A stretch of DNA of 11,573 bases from a virus (lineage: Duplodnaviria > Heunggongvirae > Uroviricota > Caudoviricetes). The notes under the pieces were generated by a model. It had not been told where the DNA came from, ran no database searches, and saw only the letters and a program-made list of their open reading frames with translations. Of this stretch, positions 746-10,717 are shown piece by piece (the first letter of the stretch is position 1; the number at the start of each line of letters is the position of its first letter). The stretch is from IMG/VR virus record IMGVR_UViG_3300012974_000418, one strand, 5' to 3'. Both the position numbers and the translations under genes were made by a program.

Positions 746-1501
746 TTATTCAGAATCAATATCTTTTAAATCATCCTGAATCGCTTGTGCGTTCGGATTT
801 TCCTGCGGTTTGAGTTCGCCGCCATTAGCGATGAAATCATGACGCTGGAAGTACGCTTCGCGCACCATAATATAAGGATCGGACGACTGACGCAGCAGAC
901 CATCGGAATCCAGCAGCTGAGCGCGGGTTTCGATCCCTTCAAGCGTCCATTTACCCACAGACATCGGCCAGGTCAGCCAGGAAAGAACCGGGTAAAGACC
1001 ATCCGCCATATCACCACCGTCATCACGCAGCGTGAAGCTACCGTAGAACGGTAACTGAACGTAAGGCCCATAACCCACGCCATAATGACCAAGCGTACTA
1101 CCGAAGCGGTGAGGTTCAGTCCGTTGCAGTTTCGGGTTCGCCATCCCTGCAACATCAATAAAGCCGCCCATCCCCAAAATGGTGTTCAGGAAAAAGCGGG
1201 TAAAGTGGACCATCCCCTGATAAGGGTCGCCCTGCAAGAAGTAGTTAACCATCACCGCAGGTTCTTCAAGGTTGCCAGTAAAGTTGCTCAAACCATTACG
1301 CGCCGGTTGCGGAACATAATCACGCCAGGCGACAGCGACCGGTCGAACAATATACGGGTCTAATACGTTGAAGTTGAAGTTGTACATGGTGCGGTTGAAC
1401 CCTTCTAACGGGTCAGAACGCCCTTGCTGATCTGTACCGGAACTCGCACACCCCACCAGAAGCGTAGTTCCCAGAGCAAGCGCCGACAGGCGAAGCTTCA
1501 T
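746..1501 (-). CDS. mlaA: MlaA/VacJ outer-membrane lipoprotein (phospholipid asymmetry maintenance)
   Basis: 251-aa ORF with signal peptide and lipobox (LLVGC); sequence reads as MlaA/VacJ family; expected position next to yfdC and argW. Confidence 0.88.
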   Translation of the reverse strand: MKLRLSALALGTTLLVGCASSGTDQQGRSDPLEGFNRTMYNFNFNVLDPYIVRPVAVAWRDYVPQPARNGLSNFTGNLEEPAVMVNYFLQGDPYQGMVHFTRFFLNTILGMGGFIDVAGMANPKLQRTEPHRFGSTLGHYGVGYGPYVQLPFYGSFTLRDDGGDMADGLYPVLSWLTWPMSVGKWTLEGIETRAQLLDSDGLLRQSSDPYIMVREAYFQRHDFIANGGELKPQENPNAQAIQDDLKDIDSE

Positions 1502-1794: not shown

Positions 1795-2727
1795 ATGGAC
1801 AACGACAAAATTGATCAACACAGCGACGAAATTGAAGTTGAGAGCGAAGAAAAAGAGCGCGGCAAAAAAATAGAAATAGATGAAGACCGACTCCCCTCCC
1901 GGGCGATGGCAATTCATGAGCATATCCGCCAGGATGGTGAAAAAGAGCTGGAACGCGACGCAATGGCGCTACTGTGGTCAGCCATTGCGGCGGGTCTGTC
2001 GATGGGCGCTTCGCTACTGGCAAAAGGGATATTTCATGTCGAACTGGAAGGAGTGCCAGGCAGCTTCTTACTGGAGAATCTCGGTTATACCTTTGGTTTT
2101 ATTATCGTCATTATGGCCCGCCAGCAATTATTTACCGAAAACACCGTGACTGCGGTACTACCCGTCATGCAAAAACCGACAATGAGCAACGTCGGCTTAC
2201 TTATGCGATTATGGGGCGTCGTGCTGCTGGGTAATATTCTCGGGACAGGTATTGCTGCATGGGCATTTGAATATATGCCTATCTTCAATGAAGAAACTCG
2301 CGATGCATTTGTCAAAATCGGCATGGATGTGATGAAGAACACCCCCAGCGAGATGTTTGCCAACGCGATCATTTCCGGCTGGCTGATCGCCACTATGGTT
2401 TGGATGTTTCCTGCTGCGGGTGCGGCAAAGATTGTGGTGATTATATTGATGACCTGGCTTATTGCACTGGGTGACACCACCCACATCGTTGTCGGTTCTG
2501 TTGAAATCCTCTATCTGGTGTTTAACGGCACGCTGCACTGGAGCGATTTCATCTGGCCCTTCGCACTACCTACTTTAGCGGGGAACATCTGCGGCGGCAC
2601 CTTTATCTTCGCGTTAATGAGTCATGCACAGATTCGTAACGACATGAGCAACAAGCGTAAAGCAGAAGCACGCCAAAAAGCAGAACGTGCGGAAAACATT
2701 AAGAAAAATGATAAAAACCCAGCATAA
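1795..2727 (+). CDS. yfdC: Inner-membrane protein of the formate/nitrite transporter (FNT) family
   Basis: 310-aa ORF with a hydrophilic acidic N-terminus followed by several hydrophobic helices; length and position immediately upstream of tRNA-Arg match yfdC. Confidence 0.85.
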   Translation: MDNDKIDQHSDEIEVESEEKERGKKIEIDEDRLPSRAMAIHEHIRQDGEKELERDAMALLWSAIAAGLSMGASLLAKGIFHVELEGVPGSFLLENLGYTFGFIIVIMARQQLFTENTVTAVLPVMQKPTMSNVGLLMRLWGVVLLGNILGTGIAAWAFEYMPIFNEETRDAFVKIGMDVMKNTPSEMFANAIISGWLIATMVWMFPAAGAAKIVVIILMTWLIALGDTTHIVVGSVEILYLVFNGTLHWSDFIWPFALPTLAGNICGGTFIFALMSHAQIRNDMSNKRKAEARQKAERAENIKKNDKNPA

Positions 2728-2802: not shown

Positions 2803-2877
2803 GTCCTCTTAGTTAAATGGATATAACGAGCCCCTCCTAAGGGCTAATTGCAGGTTCGATTCCTGCAGGGGACACCA
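2803..2877 (+). tRNA. argW: tRNA-Arg, anticodon CCU (argW-like), 75 nt with encoded CCA
   Basis: Acceptor stem GTCCTCT / AGGGGAC, anticodon loop CTCCTAA with CCT anticodon, T-arm GCAGG-TTCGATTC-CTGC, discriminator A then CCA at 2875..2877. Confidence 0.93.
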
Positions 2878-3038
2878 TCTATCAGTTCGCTCCCATCCGT
2901 ACCAGTCCGCAAAATCCCCTGAATATCAAGCTCTCCGTAGATTCACAGTTCGTCACGGTTCGCGTCAGATCGTTGACAGCCGCACTCCATGACGGGTAAA
3001 AAGTGGATAAAATAATTTTACCCACCGGATTTTTACCC
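2878..3038 (+). other. attL-proximal region between the tRNA and int, with short direct repeats (possible integrase arm-type sites) and a possible int promoter
   Basis: CAGTTCG at 2883..2889 and 2946..2952, related GGTTCG at 2957..2962; TTGACA at 2973..2978 with TAAAAA at 2997..3002 (18-nt spacer). Confidence 0.3.
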
Positions 3039-4196
3039 ATGCTCACCGTTAAGCAGATTGAAGCAGCAAAGCCGAAAGAAAAACCATACCGCCTTCTCGA
3101 TGGTAATGGCCTGTATCTTTATGTCCCTGTATCAGGGAAAAAGGTATGGCAGCTTCGCTACAAGATTGACGGTAAGGAGAAAATCCTGACCGTAGGAAAA
3201 TATCAGCTTATGACTTTGCAAGAGGCAAGGGATAAAGCATGGAATGCGAGGAAAGACATCTCGGTTGGCATCGATCCGGTAAAAGCGAAAAAGGCTTCGT
3301 CTAACAACAATTCCTTTAGTGCGATTTACAAGGAATGGTACGAGCACAAGAAGCAAGTCTGGTCAGTAGGCTATGCAACTGAACTTGCAAAAATGTTTGA
3401 TGACGACATTTTACCTATCATCGGCGGCCTTGAAATTCAGGATATTGAGCCGATGCAACTGCTGGAAGTAATCCGCAGATTTGAAGATCGCGGTGCAATG
3501 GAGCGAGCCAACAAAGCCCGCAGAAGATGCGGCGAGGTTTTCCGTTACGCTATTGTCACTGGTAGGGCTAAATATAACCCGGCACCTGACCTTGCTGACG
3601 CCATGAAGGGATACCGCAAGAAAAACTTCCCGTTTCTTCCTGCAGACCAGATCCCGGCATTCAACAAAGCACTGGCAACATTTTCAGGAAGCATCGTATC
3701 GCTCATTGCGACCAAAGTTTTACGCTACACAGCCCTAAGAACGAAAGAGCTTCGTTCCATGCAATGGAAGAACGTCGATTTTGAAAACAGGATTATCACC
3801 ATCGACGCCAGTGTGATGAAGGGACGCAAAATTCATGTTGTCCCGATGTCAGACCAGGTGGTTGAACTTCTCACTACACTAAGCTCAATCACTAAACCAG
3901 TATCAGAGTTTGTTTTTGCCGGGCGCAACGATAAGAAGAAGCCAATCTGCGAGAACGCGGTGCTACTTGTGATCAAACAAATCGGCTATGAAGGTCTGGA
4001 AAGCGGTCACGGATTCAGGCATGAATTCAGCACGATTATGAACGAGCACGAATGGCCTGCTGATGCTATTGAAGTGCAACTGGCACATGCCAACGGCGGA
4101 TCTGTGCGCGGGATTTACAACCACGCTCAGTATCTCGATAAGCGCAGAGAAATGATGCAGTGGTGGGCGGACTGGCTTGATGAAAAGGTGGAGTAA
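3039..4196 (+). CDS. intS: Phage tyrosine integrase (IntS/CPS-53-type, argW-specific family)
   Basis: The tracked ORF 3003..4196 starts at GTG; the ATG at 3039 (MLTVKQIEAAK...) gives 385 aa, the length I recall for IntS-type integrases. N-terminal arm-binding-like domain; C-terminal catalytic region with HxxR (HGFRHEF) and a tyrosine near the C-terminus (RGIYNHAQYL). Confidence 0.88.
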   Translation: MLTVKQIEAAKPKEKPYRLLDGNGLYLYVPVSGKKVWQLRYKIDGKEKILTVGKYQLMTLQEARDKAWNARKDISVGIDPVKAKKASSNNNSFSAIYKEWYEHKKQVWSVGYATELAKMFDDDILPIIGGLEIQDIEPMQLLEVIRRFEDRGAMERANKARRRCGEVFRYAIVTGRAKYNPAPDLADAMKGYRKKNFPFLPADQIPAFNKALATFSGSIVSLIATKVLRYTALRTKELRSMQWKNVDFENRIITIDASVMKGRKIHVVPMSDQVVELLTTLSSITKPVSEFVFAGRNDKKKPICENAVLLVIKQIGYEGLESGHGFRHEFSTIMNEHEWPADAIEVQLAHANGGSVRGIYNHAQYLDKRREMMQWWADWLDEKVE

Positions 4197-4250
4197 TCAA
4201 CCTTTTCATCAATTTTCACATCACCAAAGCCATTTAGAACGTGGATGATG

Positions 4251-6188
4251 TTAACCTATTGCAACTCTCGCATTACAAAATGCCAAAGCATCAGCCTCCG
4301 TATTGAACTCAACAATAAAAAAGTTTTGCAATCTAATAACGGTGTCCGTTTGTGCAGTAAGATACAATCGAATTGTTCCTGATGATTCTGCTTTTCCAAT
4401 ACCGAAAGTACTTGTCCATTTGCCGTCTTCTGTATAGATAACACCTGCTGAAACAGATTCTGAGAATCTAAAGTTTCCTGTCCCGGAAACAAGTTTAGCG
4501 TTAACCCCCCATACATACCACAGCCCACCAGTTATTGAGGCAAATTCTGAACTTAACTGTGATGACCCAGCATCGATTGATACTTCCGCACAACCATAAC
4601 CAATTGCTATTCCATCATCTACACAGTTTGCTGTTACTTGTTTCGTGCCGGGGAATGACCACGTAGTAGAACCAACAACCCCTGAATATAAATCTGCTGC
4701 ACGTACAGCGCCATGATACCCTATGGCCCCCTTGATAGCTTGCACCGTGGGCGCTCCACGCAAACTTAAGTTGCTACTCGCTAATAATCCAGATTGAGAT
4801 GCAACGCTTTTAATAATCGGGACTCCGCCAACTTCCCCCCCCGCATAAAGATTCTCAACAATAAATGAACTATTAGCGTCAACGTTCATGCTGTAAATAT
4901 TCGAACTAACAGTGTCAATTCGACAGTTACGCGCAATTAAGTTTGAGTTAATTAATTCAATATTAGTTAAGTATGACTCTTCAATGTATGCCTGTGGTGT
5001 GTTTATTAATTTAACCTGTCTCGGAACTTCTTCAGAACCATCGCGATCAATGGTAGATGCCGTAGCAATGAGTTCAAACCATACGTTTCGTATAACAATA
5101 GGGGTATAAGGAACAATGTTATTATAGTCAATCCTTATGCCACCACCAGTGCATTGCTCCATGATGCTATCTTGAATTTGCACAGATCCACCGCCATCTT
5201 GAGCATTCACTATATCAATACAGTATTTAGATATACCTTGGAAATAACAGTCGCGAAATGTATCGCAGCCAGAATGCATGCCGGGCACGCTTTCAGCACG
5301 ATACCCATACTCAGACGTTCTGAAGTTAACAGTTTGATATGTATTACCTATATTACCAGTTGGCTTTTTAATACAAACACCAAAATCAGCCATACCTACA
5401 TAACTGATATCCCATCTCCCAGAGAACATATCATTCGGGTCATATAGCACCCCCACGGAATCAGATGTTGCCGCCCCCTGTATGCTTATTTTTGAAATAC
5501 TTCGACGCTCCCAGTTTGGTACTGATTGTAATACTTTAATTGCATAATCTTCACTCCCTGGTTTTAATATAGATGAGTATCCAGAACCATCAATATCAGC
5601 ATTGCCAGTTGAAACGCTTTCGCTATATATGCCTGGAGAAACAAGAACCCGCCCCCTTGCGGTGGTATCATTAATCGCCTGTTGTAAAGTTGAATAATCA
5701 CCACTATGTTTAATGTCATTCAAATTATCAATTAGCTTTCTTTTACCAGAGCCAATATTTTTTGCACCATCTTCTGCCTGTAGAGCCGATTTACTCTGTG
5801 CATCATTAACTAAATTTAATCCTCCTGGAGAGGACAATTCTTGTCTTAACTGATCTGGATCGTACTTCAGCACATTAGGAAAATAGAACTGCTGTGCTCC
5901 ATACGCGTCATAAACAGCCATGGAATGGCCTTGCACAGTCACAAATTTAGCAATCTGTCCGTTATATACAGGATAACCAGCAGCGTTAATGATGATTGGT
6001 TGAGAAACAGGAACGTGAGAGCCGTCTTCGTTCTCCACATAAACCTGAATCTGGTTTTCAGGATTTACCGGGTCAGTGTCAATTTTACCGATATAAATTT
6101 TGCCATTGGCTACGGCTTTAAAAGAACGAGCCATAGTGAAGAGTTGCGAAGGCATCGATACAATCACATTAGCTGTAATGTCTGTCAT
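4251..6188 (-). CDS. Tailspike protein: P22 gp9-like N-terminal head-binding domain (about 5853..6188) fused to a divergent receptor-binding/depolymerase body
   Basis: The first ~110 aa ([34 protein letters not shown]...VLKYDPDQ) are near-identical to the P22 gp9 N-terminal domain as I recall it; the remaining ~530 aa do not resemble the P22 body. Confidence 0.88.
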
Positions 6189-6246: not shown

Positions 6247-6270
6247 AAAAAAACCCAGCCGAAGCTGGGT
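6247..6270 (-). terminator. Rho-independent terminator on the minus strand between ant and the tailspike gene
   Basis: Read on the minus strand: stem CCCAGC, loop TTCG, stem GCTGGG, then TTTTTTT (plus-strand A-run 6247..6253, stem arms 6254..6259 and 6264..6269). Confidence 0.65.
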
Positions 6271-6288
6271 CGTTGCGTTGGTTATCTG

Positions 6289-7212
6289 TCAGTAGTTATG
6301 TACTGAAGGAGGCAATTCTTTATTCTTAAGTCTCATCCATGCGGAAAGATTCGTTGGTCCGTCTGGCTCATTGATATCAACATCTCGTGTGTGATTGATT
6401 AAAACGTCTCTCGCCATTCCGATAACATACGAGAATTCATGACCGTAGTCGTAGCATCTGCCGGAATAGTTCGATTGAATTTGTTTTAATGCCGGATACA
6501 GTTCGCGGAATAATGCCTGTGAACGGTTAGCATAATCCCAGAGCCATACAAGGCTGTTTGCTTCTTTTGCAGAAAGCTCGTTGGTTTTCTTCTCTTGTTT
6601 GCCGATGAACTCACCTTCAAGCGGAACTCGAGCTGCAAGTGACAGTGCTTCGGTAAACTGCTCCTCACTGATTTCTTTGTACGAACATCCAAAATGGGAT
6701 TTCAGTGACGACCACATGGTGATCATCGCCTTAGCCTGTTTTTCTTTTGGCAGAGACTGACCGCGACTCATGACGAGTTGTTTAATGGCTTCCTGCTGCT
6801 CAGTGGTGATTTTACCCGGCAATGCCTTTTTAGCTTTGCGCGGGTTAACCACATGGCCTTTAGTCCAGTACTCGTAGAGCACATCGTCACACTCTTCCTG
6901 ATACTGGATTACATTGTCGCGGATTTCAGGGCGGACTTTGTTAGGGCTGATGGTTTGCAACCAGCCATTCAGTTTACGTAAAGCAAGGCAAATCATGGTC
7001 TGCACGCCGCCAACTGAAGGTATTGCGATTTCCACAATACCTTTAGCAAATCTTTGTTTTAACTTTGTAAACTGTGAAGCCCAATCCATACCCATTCCCT
7101 CAACGATAGGTTTCATTGGGGTATACGGTTCGCCGTTGTGATTGACAACATAAAGCTCTGCGCCGTGGAATGGCACGTTGATAGTAGATACTGCTGTTGC
7201 TATACTTTTCAT
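6289..7212 (-). CDS. Phage antirepressor (Ant-like, AntA-type N-terminal domain)
   Basis: 307-aa ORF placed between the arc-like gene and the tailspike, as ant is in P22 immI. The N-terminal region has the look of AntA-type antirepressor domains. RBS GAGGA 9 nt upstream of the ATG. Confidence 0.65.
7178..7206 (+). promoter_or_regulatory. Predicted sigma70 promoter firing antisense across the ant translation-initiation region (Psar-like)
   Basis: TTGATA (7178..7183), 17-nt spacer, TATACT (7201..7206) on the plus strand, inside the first codons of ant; predicted start about 7213. Confidence 0.45.
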
Positions 7213-7283
7213 GTCAGTTTTTCCTCAAAATTTACTGGCGATTTAAGCCCGAGCTACTCGCAATAGCTTGGGCTTTACTCATT
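7213..7283 (+). ncRNA. Candidate sar-like small antisense RNA complementary to the ant ribosome-binding site
   Basis: From the predicted start (~7213) across the ant RBS complement to a hairpin (arms 7245..7255 and 7265..7275, 10 Watson-Crick pairs plus one G-U, 9-nt loop) followed by a U-containing tail; about 68..71 nt. Confidence 0.4.
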
Positions 7284-7425
7284 CTGGACAAACAATTCCA
7301 TCCTTAGCTACTGACTCCTTTAGTCTCCTCAATACCTCATTACTGAACGACCGATCATCCTTTTTAGCGGACTGCTCCAAAGCCTTTTCCAGCCATTCTG
7401 GCATCCTTAATGTCTTAACTTTCAT
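7279..7425 (-). CDS. Arc-like ribbon-helix-helix repressor, 48 aa (below the ORF-track length cutoff)
   Basis: Hand-translated: MKVKTLRMPEWLEKALEQSAKKDDRSFSNEVLRRLKESVAKDGIVCPE. AAGGAG RBS 5 nt upstream of the ATG at 7423..7425; RHH pattern (MP..L...L....RS.N.EV..RL.ES); position between mnt and ant. Confidence 0.6.
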   Translation of the reverse strand: MKVKTLRMPEWLEKALEQSAKKDDRSFSNEVLRRLKESVAKDGIVCPE

Positions 7426-7529
7426 TTTTGCTCCTTTGTATGTGGTACGCATACATAGTATTTAGGTACGCATTGATAGTCAATAGATACCTACATATCC
7501 TGTGGTAAATAATTATTCAGGATGCGCCG
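7426..7529. promoter_or_regulatory. Divergent promoter/operator region between the arc-like and mnt-like genes (Pant-like and Pmnt-like)
   Basis: Minus strand: TTGACT (revcomp of 7478..7483), 17-nt spacer, TACTAT (revcomp of 7455..7460). Plus strand: TTGATA at 7473..7478 with TATCCT at 7496..7501. Imperfect palindrome GTATG-N7-CATAC (7438..7454) centred on GTAC; direct repeat GGTACGCAT at 7444..7452 and 7465..7473. Confidence 0.5.
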
Positions 7530-7781
7530 ATGTCTGATCGTAAGTACAAAAACCCTCAAGTGAATCTGAGGCTTCCTGTAGAGATAAAGGAACGTCTTAT
7601 TGAGCTGGCTGAGGCTAATTCTCGTTCATTAAATGCTGAGATGGTCGCGGCACTTGAAGCGTGGACCGAAAAAAATAAACACATTCAAGCACTAGACCTT
7701 GCAACTATAGCATCGCGGTTGATAGAGCTTGAGCATGAGGTTGAGAAGTTAAAATGTATGCATGGCAACGGTGAAAAATGA
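7530..7781 (+). CDS. Mnt-like ribbon-helix-helix repressor (maintenance-of-lysogeny repressor of the immI module)
   Basis: 83-aa ORF, the length I recall for P22 Mnt; N-terminal RHH pattern (VNLRLPVEIKERLIELAEANSRSLNAEMVAALEAW); divergent from the arc-like/ant genes. Confidence 0.7.
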   Translation: MSDRKYKNPQVNLRLPVEIKERLIELAEANSRSLNAEMVAALEAWTEKNKHIQALDLATIASRLIELEHEVEKLKCMHGNGEK

Positions 7782-8092
7782 AACGCATCGCTATTTTGTT
7801 AATATTGTTCTTCTCTACAATAGTTTGCGCCAAACAAAAATCAGATAATGGCGATCTTAAAGGCCTGCAAGAACTCATGATAACTTCGAAATTTGCTGGC
7901 ATGTGCGGCACAATCAAACAAATGGCAACATTTCAAGAATCAACAAAAATGCCTGGCGGAGATGAGTTCTTACATCGTTTTCTGACCACAGAGCAAGCAA
8001 GACTTGGAATGAATCCACAGGAGTTTCTTGAAGCATGCCAGAAGTCAATTTCAGCTTATACCAATTATTACAATCTAACTTCTGATAAATAA
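7778..8092 (+). CDS. Small exported protein of unknown function (N-terminal signal peptide); accessory gene in the mnt operon
   Basis: 104-aa ORF whose ATG overlaps the mnt stop (ATGA); hydrophobic N-terminus MKRIAILLILFFSTIVCA; AT-rich relative to flanking genes by eye. Confidence 0.6.
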   Translation: MKRIAILLILFFSTIVCAKQKSDNGDLKGLQELMITSKFAGMCGTIKQMATFQESTKMPGGDEFLHRFLTTEQARLGMNPQEFLEACQKSISAYTNYYNLTSDK

Positions 8093-8117
8093 TAGAAAGG
8101 ATTTTATAAATAACTTT

Positions 8118-8603
8118 ATGAAAAAATCACTATTAATTATCCCGCTTCTGCTGGCTGGATGCGCAAAAGTAAGTGACTATCAAGCAAGTTGCGAACAACG
8201 CTATCCAAAGCTTAGTGATATGGCTAATTGCCTTGATGCCAGCGTGAAGAACGACTCACGCATGGCATCAGCACCAACACCTAAGCTGTATGTCCTTGCT
8301 GCGAAGATGCTCGGGCAAGGTGTCGATGAAGGCAAGATAAGTGACGCACAGGCAAGACTTGAGCTTCAGAATCTTTATGTTCAATTACAAAGCCAAGAAC
8401 AAGCCCAACAAATAGCACAAAGCCAAGCATTCCAGCAGGCTTTATTGAATTATCAGGCTGTAAACACAATGCAAGCGATCGAGCAAAAAGCGAGACAGCC
8501 TGTTATAACTCAACCTTACCCAACGCGTGTTGACACCTATACAAACTGCAATTCAGGATTTGGAAATACCGTCACATGCAACAGTAGCAGCAACATTAGA
8601 TAA
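8118..8603 (+). CDS. Predicted outer-membrane lipoprotein of unknown function with a Gln-rich predicted helical region
   Basis: 161-aa ORF; lipobox LLAG-C with Cys at position 15 and Ala at +2 (no Asp inner-membrane retention signal); Q-rich segment (QLQSQEQAQQIAQSQAFQQALLNYQA); same strand as and downstream of mnt. Confidence 0.65.
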   Translation: MKKSLLIIPLLLAGCAKVSDYQASCEQRYPKLSDMANCLDASVKNDSRMASAPTPKLYVLAAKMLGQGVDEGKISDAQARLELQNLYVQLQSQEQAQQIAQSQAFQQALLNYQAVNTMQAIEQKARQPVITQPYPTRVDTYTNCNSGFGNTVTCNSSSNIR

Positions 8604-8605
8604 AG

Positions 8606-10717
8606 CTATTCATATTCATTCATACCGCTTAACGAGGCGACAATACCAACTCTCGACAAGCGATTGAATTCATCGCTACCAATAGCATCGCGTATTGCTT
8701 TTACGGCGGCTTTATTTGCCATAAATCTGCGTTCAGCCGCCGCTAATGCACCATCACTTGCCCCAACCTTAACTGCCTTTGTTGCCTCTTGGACAGCCTT
8801 TTCAATCGCGTAACGACCACTGCGGGATGCAGCTAACTTTTCTATCGTCCCTTTAGCTATAGATCCAGAAACAGCCCCCACAACACCGCCAACAATCCCG
8901 CCACCAGTGGTACCAACAATAGCCCCTGATGTTGAATTGCCTATTGCATTGAGAACTGTCATGACAGCTTTTGGCAGCCCTTGCTCAAGAGAGTTAATAG
9001 CCGGTATAGAGCGCCCCGTATGCTCTACATATCGCAGTGGTCTGGTTGCTGCTCTGGCAAGGTCGCTGTATGCCCTAGCAATCTTACCCATTTCTGGCGA
9101 GTGCCTGCTAATGGCAGTAATGTTCTGCGGCGTAAGGATCGACGCTATATGGAATACGCCAGCAGACTCTGATTTACCGCCACGCACCCCTTGCGATACC
9201 GCATCTTGTAATATTGATGCAATTGCTGGAGATCGCTCAGACTCTGGCAGTGAGCCAATAATCTGATGAAACTTTCCTGTCCCACTTTTTGATGAATTTT
9301 GCAAGGCTTTAATACCATCAGTGACTAACTGATCAGTTGCAAGGTTTCTAAACGCTGCTTCAGCCTGTTCTTGTGCTGTAAATCTTGCTTTTGACAGATC
9401 ATTAGCTTTTTGCCAGTCATCAAGAAAACCGCCATTTTGAGCCATTATGCGCATATCTTCCGTTGCTGCATCACGAAGCTCCGCCATGCGCCTTGCCGTA
9501 TTTGCCTCACCAGACCTTATATACTTCTGCTCAGCGTCAGCAAGTTTACTTCGCCATGCCTTCATGGCATCAAACGTGATTCCTTTTTTACCAGTTTTAG
9601 CATAAGCAGATGCAAATTGTTTCATCTCAGGAGTTAGCGGCATGCCAGCCAAAATATCACCCTGAATTGTAGCGTTCAGGTTTGACATTCTGGCCTTTGC
9701 GTCAGGCATCGTGGAGCGGACGCTATCCCATGCTGCCTTTTCTGAGTTCTTCATTTTATCAATACTTGCTAAAACCCTTTGTTTTATGGCTGCACTTTTT
9801 TCTGATGCAGATCCAGCCTCAGCACCAAGTTCATCAAGTGCTGAGTGGAATTTCGACTGTATTTCACTAAACGCCCTAGTATGTGCATCCTGAACAATTC
9901 CTGGTTCGGATGCCAATATCCCTTCGGCTTGTGCAATTCCACGACTTCCAGATCGCATTCCTGGTGTTAATGCGTTTATATCAATTCCAGCAGACTCAGC
10001 CGCTTTTGCTACATCTTCGGACACATTAGCGGCCTGACTGGCAATTGACTGACGCCCAGCACCTGACTTTGCCATCCTGGAAACATCATTAGCAGAATTC
10101 AGTGCTGCACCACCAAGAGCCTGTGAAACCCTTGGCGCAATAACGCGCCCGACACCTGAAAGAACGCCTTGAGCACCAATATTGATACCACCGTTAATGG
10201 CAGCATTTTGTGCAAAATCACCCTCCTGATTTGCAGCATCAGCAAGAGAACCTGCAATCATGTTTCCTGCGGAACCGATATCTCCAGCGAGCTTTGCTGG
10301 CGCTCCAGCAGCTTTTGCCGCTGTGCCAATTGGCAGGAGATACCCACCAATTGTTTCACCGGCTTGCGCATAAGGGTCTGTCGGTCGATCGACTGGACGA
10401 TAGACATCATCCAAAACCTTGGGGCCACCAAGCCCCTGGCTGATTGCATTAATCAGACTTGCGCCACCCTGCAATACGTCAAATGGTATGTTTACCAGAC
10501 CACGGCCAGCCTGTTCTGCAATTTGCCCTGCGCTTTGACCACCAGTGAGCCAGTCAGTGGCTTTTCCTACCAGAGATTGTTCTTCTGGCTGCGATTGGTT
10601 TTGAGTGGATTGATCACCAGAAGACAGCATCTGAGCAATGCGACGTGCTCCCTCAGTATCGCCGGCAGCATCAGCATTCCTTAACGCCGTCATCAACTGT
10701 TCGCGACTATAGGCCAT
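8606..10717 (-). CDS. Internal virion/DNA-ejection protein (P22 gp16-like by position), Ala/Gly-rich
   Basis: 703-aa ORF, the last late-strand gene before the immunity module, as gene 16 is in P22. Low-complexity A/G/S-rich composition with a glycine-zipper-like segment ([22 protein letters not shown]) near the C-terminus. Its ATG overlaps the upstream gene stop (TAATG). Confidence 0.55.

Follow-up and report, generated by a model that had tools for sequence, protein, structure and literature searches.

The window analysed here, an 11,573-nucleotide stretch of DNA from IMG/VR virus record IMGVR_UViG_3300012974_000418, covers the boundary at which an Escherichia coli chromosome meets the right-hand portion of a P22-like prophage inserted at argW. 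The chromosomal side carries the host genes mlaA (746-1501, minus strand) and yfdC (1795-2727, plus strand), and this flank is matched by all 5,426 of the 5,426 complete E. coli genomes searched. The prophage attachment site, seen from its attL side, is the tRNA-Arg(CCU) gene argW (2803-2877, plus strand), detected with ARAGORN; homology to phage CUS-3 begins near window position 2848, and the CUS-3 record itself opens with the attL core.

The first prophage gene encodes an IntS-type tyrosine integrase (3003-4196, plus strand; Pfam Arm-DNA-bind_3, Phage_int_M and Phage_integrase), which carries the intS annotation in E. coli TW10573 and is convergent with the tailspike gene. The two stop codons are separated by a 54-bp spacer (4197-4250). 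The tailspike open reading frame (4251..6188, minus strand) starts with ATG and encodes 645 residues followed by a stop codon; the open reading frame list, its translation, and Pfam and PHROG tail matches all support a real, intact gene, delimited as the earlier note on this DNA had proposed. Beyond the tailspike lie ant (6289-7212, minus strand), arc (7279-7452, minus strand), a gene for a Mnt-like repressor (7530-7781, plus strand), two small open reading frames designated orf104 and orf161 (7778-8092 and 8118-8603, plus strand) and a gene for a gp16-type DNA-transfer protein (8606-10717, minus strand), with gp20-like fragments further on. A consensus scan placed a terminator-like hairpin, whose 8-bp stem leads into a run of T, in the interval separating ant from the tailspike gene (6252..6271, minus strand), in agreement with the position of tANT as annotated in HK620. 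The resulting order (gp20, gp16, cassette, mnt, arc, ant, tailspike, int, argW) is that of a P22-type late-region end, and the same layout is found in CUS-3 and TW10573. Among complete E. coli genomes, strain TW10573, in whose annotation the genes are named, provides the best match to the prophage context; the closest phage record overall is CUS-3, followed by other Lederbergvirus-like phages.

Head-binding domain and exchanged module of the tailspike

The assignment of the N-terminal 110 or so residues to a P22-type head-binding domain, made in the earlier note, is borne out by a full-length match of residues 1-113 (5850..6188, minus strand) to the tail-attachment profile PF09008 Head_binding (E = 5.6e-67). 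In a phmmer search of all PDB sequences, residues 1-118 matched Sf6, P22 and other P22-type tailspikes, Sf6 gp14 ranking closest (7sg7, E = 8e-65) and P22 gp9 also being clearly matched, and the body of the protein matched no PDB sequence. A profile search of the PDB recovered the N-terminal domain together with a weak extension into the cap and first β-helix rungs of Sf6, and yielded no remote homologue with a known active site for the body. Both phmmer and profile alignments to P22 gp9 cover residues 1-128 only, so that no homology to the gp9 body (residues ~120-666) was detected. At the DNA level, the tailspike gene is 88-98% identical to that of CUS-3 up to about nucleotide 300, after which identity drops to 78% near nucleotides 300-360 and to 56% near nucleotides 330-390.

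The head-binding domain is followed by a linker, or neck (residues 114-133; 5790..5849, minus strand), predicted with low confidence (pLDDT below 50) and common to the P22-type tailspikes P0001, P0007 and P0019 of receptor-binding protein (RBP) subtype X18. Residues 117-133 of this segment resemble the neck of Kayfunavirus fibres, GGIGLGAWVSVGDASLR. Among 74 other P22-type tailspikes sampled, a DGAxxIG motif is present in only 4, where it lies at residue 122.

A tblastn search of 50,697 phage records found that residues 120-645 share 91% identity with the tail fibre of the virulent phage vB_EcoP_IMEP24, and that identity drops to about 36-39% for the LM33_P1, ES17 and Kagunavirus siphophage fibres or spikes. 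Nucleotides 399-1938 of the gene show 95.8% DNA identity to nucleotides 645-2184 of the IMEP24 tail-fibre gene, and residues 134-645 (4254..5789, minus strand), which we define from this identity and its breakpoints as the exchanged receptor-binding module (subtype X18, clade A), are 93.4% identical to fibre residues 216-727. In a sliding comparison, identity to IMEP24 climbs from approximately 50% to 86-98% at nucleotides ~395-400, placing the 5' breakpoint at the boundary between residues 133 and 134, directly after NDAQSK. The reading frame then agrees with the IMEP24 fibre up to its last residue, and identity collapses approximately 20-25 nucleotides past the stop codon, marking the 3' breakpoint. 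The two modules are separated by a dS of 0.089 with an omega of 0.35, pointing to a recent common ancestor and to purifying selection on both copies; against a 96% identical prophage variant, omega is 0.18.

These data strongly support, at the level of sequence, a mosaic origin of the tailspike by module exchange. The exchange that the earlier note had proposed is now located at both breakpoints, and its partner is the fibre gene of a virulent T7-like phage. Residues 134-645 constitute a portable cassette, recently swapped between this temperate chassis and at least three other kinds of phage, all virulent coliphages, with the 5' recombination point inside the conserved neck sequence and the 3' point just beyond the stop codon. 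The first ~25 nucleotides past the tailspike stop codon look like a decayed version of the hairpin downstream of the IMEP24 fibre gene, and no terminator-like site was detected in the spacer (4197-4250). The decayed hairpin weakly suggests that transfer proceeded from a lytic to a temperate phage.

Predicted fold of the tailspike body

An AlphaFold2 monomer model of residues 111-645, built on 27 family sequences, reached a mean pLDDT of 87.8 and a pTM of 0.84, with a poorly defined neck (residues 111-154). The model contains, with good confidence, a right-handed parallel β-helix at residues ~158-482 (4743..5717, minus strand), bearing a putative catalytic and binding groove. It is followed by a predicted C-terminal β-sandwich at residues ~494-645 (4254..4709, minus strand), delineated by secondary structure and high pLDDT, for which Foldseek reported a local match to the CBM22 carbohydrate-binding module 4xuo (TM 0.59, normalised to the target).

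Foldseek comparison against the PDB matched the body to the Klebsiella K2-2 tailspike, CBA120 TSP4, Kp7 gp52 and the Sf6, P22 and HK620 tailspikes, with E values of 1e-10 to 1e-4 at 10-13% identity (11-12% for the P22 tailspike). The predicted β-helix matches depolymerase tailspikes and polysaccharide lyases or hydrolases. The claim that the body is unrelated to that of P22 accordingly holds for sequence and fails for the predicted fold class, which is the same. The model confirms a depolymerase-type tailspike fold for the predicted body, and this fold would suit a hydrolase, a lyase or a purely binding protein alike. Five residues are invariant across the family and may belong to the active site: H305, D309, E372, D425 and D437.

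Distribution of the receptor-binding module and its probable target

Related bodies form a family of modest size, with 280 clusters at E ≤ 1e-3 and 62 at E ≤ 1e-30 in a HMMER search of 1.84 billion representative proteins; a scan of IMG/VR with the body as query returned no relatives. The family splits into three clades. Clade A comprises the present protein, P0001 (95% identical), IMEP24 (93%), P0003 (88%), P0006 (72%) and P0010 (51%). Clade B comprises LM33_P1, Golestan (92% identical to LM33_P1), the P22-type P0007 (81%), ES17 (64%) and the P22-type P0019 and P0022 (63% to LM33_P1). Clade C consists of 635-residue P22-type tailspikes approximately 40% identical to both A and B. Subtype X18, defined to include IMEP24, LM33_P1, Golestan and PD38 RBP1, has no serogroup assigned to it (supplement, PMC10408124); the present module falls within it at the threshold of at least 30% amino acid identity over the receptor-binding domain (RBD), with 93% identity to IMEP24, 39% to LM33_P1 and 40% to Golestan, measured over about 510 residues.

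Clade A modules are carried by four chassis types: P22-like phages, Kayfunavirus, a Kagunavirus-like siphovirus (P0003, contig L095; 88% amino acid identity to the present module) and an SU10/Kuravirus-like podovirus (P0006, contig L096; 72%). The LM33_P1 clade (Golestan, ES17, P0007) extends over the same four types. This spread, seen in each of the two clades, is the pattern expected for host-glycan-specific RBDs moved horizontally, and it is the signature used by Pas et al. 2023 (PMC10408124) for serogroup-specific RBDs moved in this way.

By analogy with P22 and Sf6, the tailspike would act as a homotrimer in which residues 1-113 plug into the tail hub and the β-helix body binds and cleaves a host surface polysaccharide, letting the virion reach the outer membrane; the C-terminal β-sandwich may stabilise the trimer or add glycan contacts. 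The most likely substrate would be O-antigen. We lean towards an E. coli O-antigen of a serogroup still to be assigned as the target, with capsule as the main rival. The earlier note's description of the receptor specificity as unknown was supported: the near-identical relatives (the IMEP24 fibre, WP_249531446.1 and others) are uncharacterised. The nearest characterised relative, LM33_P1, is 39% identical, so that the body is not near-identical to any tailspike of known specificity found in the comparison. According to PMC7885116, citing Dufour et al. 2016, LM33_P1 targets ST131-O25b:H4, and the same article reports that the homologous ES17 fibre binds heparan sulfate, indicating that members of the family need not share one class of glycan. 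Neither specificity is transferable to clade A, because RBD identity is only 38-39%. The present module lies outside the O25b clade, whose members are 63-92% identical to LM33_P1, and in a separate clade at 39% identity.

Megablast and sensitive blastn searches found the body in none of the 5,426 complete E. coli genomes, and P0007, the P22-type member of the LM33_P1 clade, was likewise found in none of the complete E. coli genomes; clade C, ~40% identical to the present body, matched three complete genomes, which carry no serotype names. In the literature, IMEP24 was mentioned by a single ICTV taxonomy paper, and nothing specific was found on the biochemistry of O25b tailspikes.

A capsular polysaccharide (a K antigen, a group 1/4 capsule or a colanic-acid-like polymer), possibly attacked by a lyase activity, is an unlikely alternative target. 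The top Foldseek matches are Klebsiella capsule depolymerases (K2-2 TSP, Kp7 gp52 and Depo32), but at 10-16% identity these matches are generic to the fold. PHROG 8280, annotated with colanic-acid degradation activity, matches residues 1-243, but it is the head-binding domain plus first rungs that account for this match. Kayfunavirus fibres can be capsule-specific, as in the case of K1F (PMC10408124); against this, O-serogroup correlates with the tailspikes of P22-like phages of E. coli and Salmonella (Pas et al., PMC10408124), and the sole experimentally characterised family member cited, LM33_P1, is described as O25b-specific (PMC7885116). An O-antigen target remains the reading that we favour.

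The tailspike-integrase slot

P22 and Sf6 carry a surface-glycan-modifying gene beside the tailspike. In the present prophage, the spacer at 4197-4250 contains no open reading frame, and no gtr, acyltransferase or acetyltransferase gene lies between tailspike and integrase. The convergent integrase, the 54-bp distance and the lack of an intervening conversion gene are as the earlier note had described them, and the slot holds none of the genes (gtrABC, an oac or acyltransferase gene, or a neuO-type gene) by which serotype-converting prophages of this kind would be recognised. No conversion gene was found elsewhere in the window, nor in the 19 kb inspected of the 40.5-kb sister genome L094. The same note's comparison of this arrangement with that of HK620 and CUS-3 proved mistaken, as both carry a gene in the slot: in HK620, gene 9 is directly followed by a gene annotated as encoding an O-antigen modification protein, and CUS-3 has the phase-variable neuO between integrase and tailspike. 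An acyltransferase gene occupies the slot in TW10573.

To place the empty slot in context, we surveyed the 80 loci in IMG/VR whose head-binding domains were most similar to the present one. In 30 of these, a full-length IntS-type integrase gene lies downstream of the tailspike gene in convergent orientation, and these formed the counted set. The gap was at most 150 bp in 14 of these 30 loci, 211-474 bp in three (one holding a gtrA remnant) and at least 699 bp in 13, the filled slots holding gtrABC, acyltransferase-3 or hexapeptide acetyltransferase genes. Counted by distinct tailspike body (25 types), 12 were empty, 10 filled, 2 intermediate and 1 mixed. An empty slot is common, occurring in about half of comparable argW prophages, and is not notable. 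We rejected the idea that it is specific to the present tailspike, since empty slots are common across tailspike types.

The X18 P22-type tailspikes examined at argW, namely the clade A members in the window, L005, L006 and L094, P0007 of the LM33_P1 clade, and P0019, all abut int, and the 54-bp junction is identical in contigs L005, L006 and L094. Because the downstream flanks are homologous, the empty slot among X18 prophages reflects inheritance of the chassis and does not constitute independent evidence. With the slot empty, a lysogen would not be expected to modify the receptor through known genes of the gtr, oac or neuO type.

An empty slot could also have arisen by deletion in a decaying, non-inducible prophage, in which the tailspike would be a functionless relic. 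No more than the right-hand quarter of the prophage is visible in the window, the hairpin downstream of the tailspike appears decayed, and in TW10573, which is the closest complete genome, the prophage is truncated, with recT fused next to gp16. However, the tailspike reading frame is intact and agrees with the IMEP24 fibre to the last residue, omega lies at 0.18-0.35, and none of int, ant, arc, mnt and gp16 is disrupted. Furthermore, the exact tailspike protein occurs with the same neighbours on the ENA metagenome contig L005, and 60 sequences from many assemblies form a cluster headed by its 96% variant P0001, among them the RefSeq entries WP_249531446.1, WP_244584764.1, WP_244586320.1 and WP_250190012.1. 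Finally, the 40,566-bp metagenome contig L094, which resembles a complete P22-like phage genome, carries the same tailspike, 54-bp junction, int and early-left operon, which argues for a live phage. A relic is, on this evidence, improbable, and the tailspike probably belongs to a live phage.

Taken together, these results make it very likely that the product of the gene at 4251..6188 is the receptor-binding tailspike of a temperate P22-like phage (Lederbergvirus-type, CUS-3/Sf6-like) residing at argW of E. coli, with an exchanged β-helix body and an empty tailspike-integrase slot.

The orf104-orf161 cassette

The possibility raised in the earlier note that the cassette at 7778..8603 might mediate lysogenic conversion was not upheld, as its products lack transferase features and the cassette is not linked to tailspike type. 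The 104-residue product of orf104 has a Sec-type signal peptide, and orf161 encodes a 161-residue lipoprotein with a classical lipobox (LLAGC) and four conserved cysteines, indicating that both are envelope proteins. Neither had a Pfam or PADLOC match, an NCBIfam match above the curated cut-off or a transferase signature, and their PHROGs are of unknown function. The orf161 family, whose AlphaFold2 model for the present member has a pLDDT of 63, contains only hypothetical proteins and lipoproteins, from prophages of Serratia, Yersinia, Klebsiella, Morganella and Providencia and from a few P22-like phages. In TW10573 the cassette is found with a tailspike of another type and an acyltransferase; where the tailspike is the same as here, L006 carries something else in place of the cassette and L094 retains only orf161.

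The two genes sit at the position that sieA/hkcC occupies in P22. Our best guess is that both are envelope morons expressed in the lysogen, such as superinfection exclusion proteins; judging from their sequences, they are not glycan-modifying enzymes.

It is nonetheless conceivable that the prophage converts or masks the receptor through unrecognised genes, possibly this mnt-linked cassette. Kapi1 alters O-antigen with no known conversion gene, and deletions of its candidate genes were without effect (PMC8787464); orf104 and orf161 also lie at the lysogen-expressed mnt/sieA position. However, transferase and acyltransferase features are absent from both products, the cassette is unlinked to tailspike type, and the DNA-level match to Kapi1 stops near window position 6622, before the cassette. 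The occurrence of the orf161 family across Enterobacterales with diverse surface glycans is better explained by a generic exclusion or fitness role. We consider such cryptic conversion highly improbable. The same very low probability applies to the joint proposal that the receptor is protected or remodelled through envelope proteins like those of orf104 and orf161, with no known O-antigen-modifying enzyme involved, and that clade A represents an E. coli surface-glycan specificity yet to be assigned, shared by four unrelated chassis. An exclusion-type role for the cassette remains our preferred reading.

Comparison with known systems

Modules for K1, O78, O145 and other specificities are documented to have been exchanged by temperate and virulent phages. 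Among P22-like phages a mosaic tailspike is the norm, as illustrated by the 25 different bodies found on nearly the same head-binding domain in the 30 sampled loci, and the present case is an ordinary one, of an already-known protein type. Its value lies in providing a clean example of exchange between Kayfunavirus and P22-like phages that is recent (dS about 0.09), is mapped at both breakpoints and concerns a specificity that would be new. Once a serogroup is assigned, the module could serve in typing, engineered phages and tailocins. Furthermore, the neck motif at the junction suggests that the RBP recombination hot spots proposed for lytic coliphages (Pas et al.) may extend to a temperate chassis.

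The tailspikes of P22 (gp9), Sf6 (gp14), HK620 (gp9) and CUS-3 (SiaK1) share with the present protein the head-binding domain and the position at the end of the late region beside int, and those of P22, Sf6 and HK620 share the predicted β-helix fold class of its body. In contrast, the bodies of all four show no sequence similarity to the present one beyond the first rungs, and HK620 and CUS-3 have a glycan-modifying gene beside the tailspike, which the present prophage lacks.

Kapi1 (vB_EcoP_Kapi1) uses the same argW site, has a 96% identical integrase region, likewise joins a head-binding domain to an orphan body and is without a recognisable conversion gene. It differs in having a different body and a small open reading frame, hyp24, between tailspike and integrase. 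Its O-antigen modification is experimentally established (PMC8787464).

Members of the LM33_P1 clade share with the present protein the full-length architecture of neck motif, β-helix and C-terminal domain, and the P22-type members of that family, P0007 and P0019, likewise abut intS at argW without a conversion gene; their RBD, however, is only 38-39% identical to the present one. IMEP24 (Kayfunavirus; MZ648215, UCR92084.1) shares the receptor-binding module, the same C-terminus and approximately 20 nucleotides of 3' flank, but anchors the module through a T7-type tail-fibre N-terminus (PF03906, PF18668) rather than the P22 head-binding domain used here, and is virulent, whereas the present prophage is temperate.

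Host flank and integrase start

Upstream of mlaA, window 1-750 matches the final part of an icaT-like gene in the annotation of E. coli TW10573, the strain with the best-matching prophage context. The gene called at this position varies between related contigs carrying the same tailspike, encoding 352 aa in L005 and 224 aa in L006. This segment has a low GC content (0.34-0.37). The longest integrase ORF begins at a GTG codon at window 3003 and encodes 397 aa. In related contigs, gene callers return an integrase of 397 aa in some and of 385 aa in others, the latter corresponding to a start 36 nt downstream of GTG 3003 (window ~3039).

Small ORFs beside mnt and the gp16-type protein

Two small ORFs lie downstream of mnt on the plus strand: orf104 (window 7778-8092), encoding a 104-aa signal-peptide protein, and orf161 (window 8118-8603), encoding a 161-aa lipoprotein with an LLAGC lipobox and four conserved cysteines. 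Together they take the place that sieA/hkcC occupy in P22. The orf161 lipoprotein family is kept in prophages across many Enterobacterales genera, and members are also encoded by phages Gally, 720R6, VSe13 and Brookers; the AlphaFold2 model of orf161 reaches a pLDDT of only 63.

The same tailspike is carried by L094, a 40,566-bp contig from JGI metagenome 3300076421 that is probably a complete phage genome. At L094 6223-9104, immI is reduced to mnt and orf161, without arc and ant. The gp16-type DNA-transfer protein of the window (8606-10717, minus strand) comprises 703 aa, and among the PHROGs that match its residues ~28-252 the annotations are transglycosylase and lytic tail fibre protein; L094 gp16 is longer (875 aa) and contains an SLT domain.

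Tailspike neck, 3' end and RBD clade

The neck of the tailspike (window 5772-5849, aa 114-139) is similar to the neck of the Kayfunavirus fibre, and is common to P22-type tailspikes of the X18 subtype from different clades. In Pas et al. 2023 (PMC10408124), the recombination hot spot 'motif one' is reported for lytic genera only; the tailspike neck may be its counterpart.

No terminator-like site was found in the tailspike-integrase interval. The ~25 nt 3' of the tailspike stop (window ~4226-4250, minus strand) resemble a decayed version of the GC-rich hairpin following the fibre gene of the virulent Kayfunavirus IMEP24.

A single RBD clade was found on four chassis types: the window prophage, IMEP24, a Kagunavirus-like siphovirus (L095 6001-7929; 88% aa identity) and an SU10/Kuravirus-like podovirus (L096 6001-8019; 72%). 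With the window tailspike as query, tblastn alignments to Kagunavirus tailspikes (e.g. MZ234010 27043-28896) begin at query residue 50, a hint that the Kagunavirus anchor is similar to the P22 head-binding domain over that domain's second half. The chassis spread of this RBD clade is paralleled by that of the LM33_P1 (O25b) clade.
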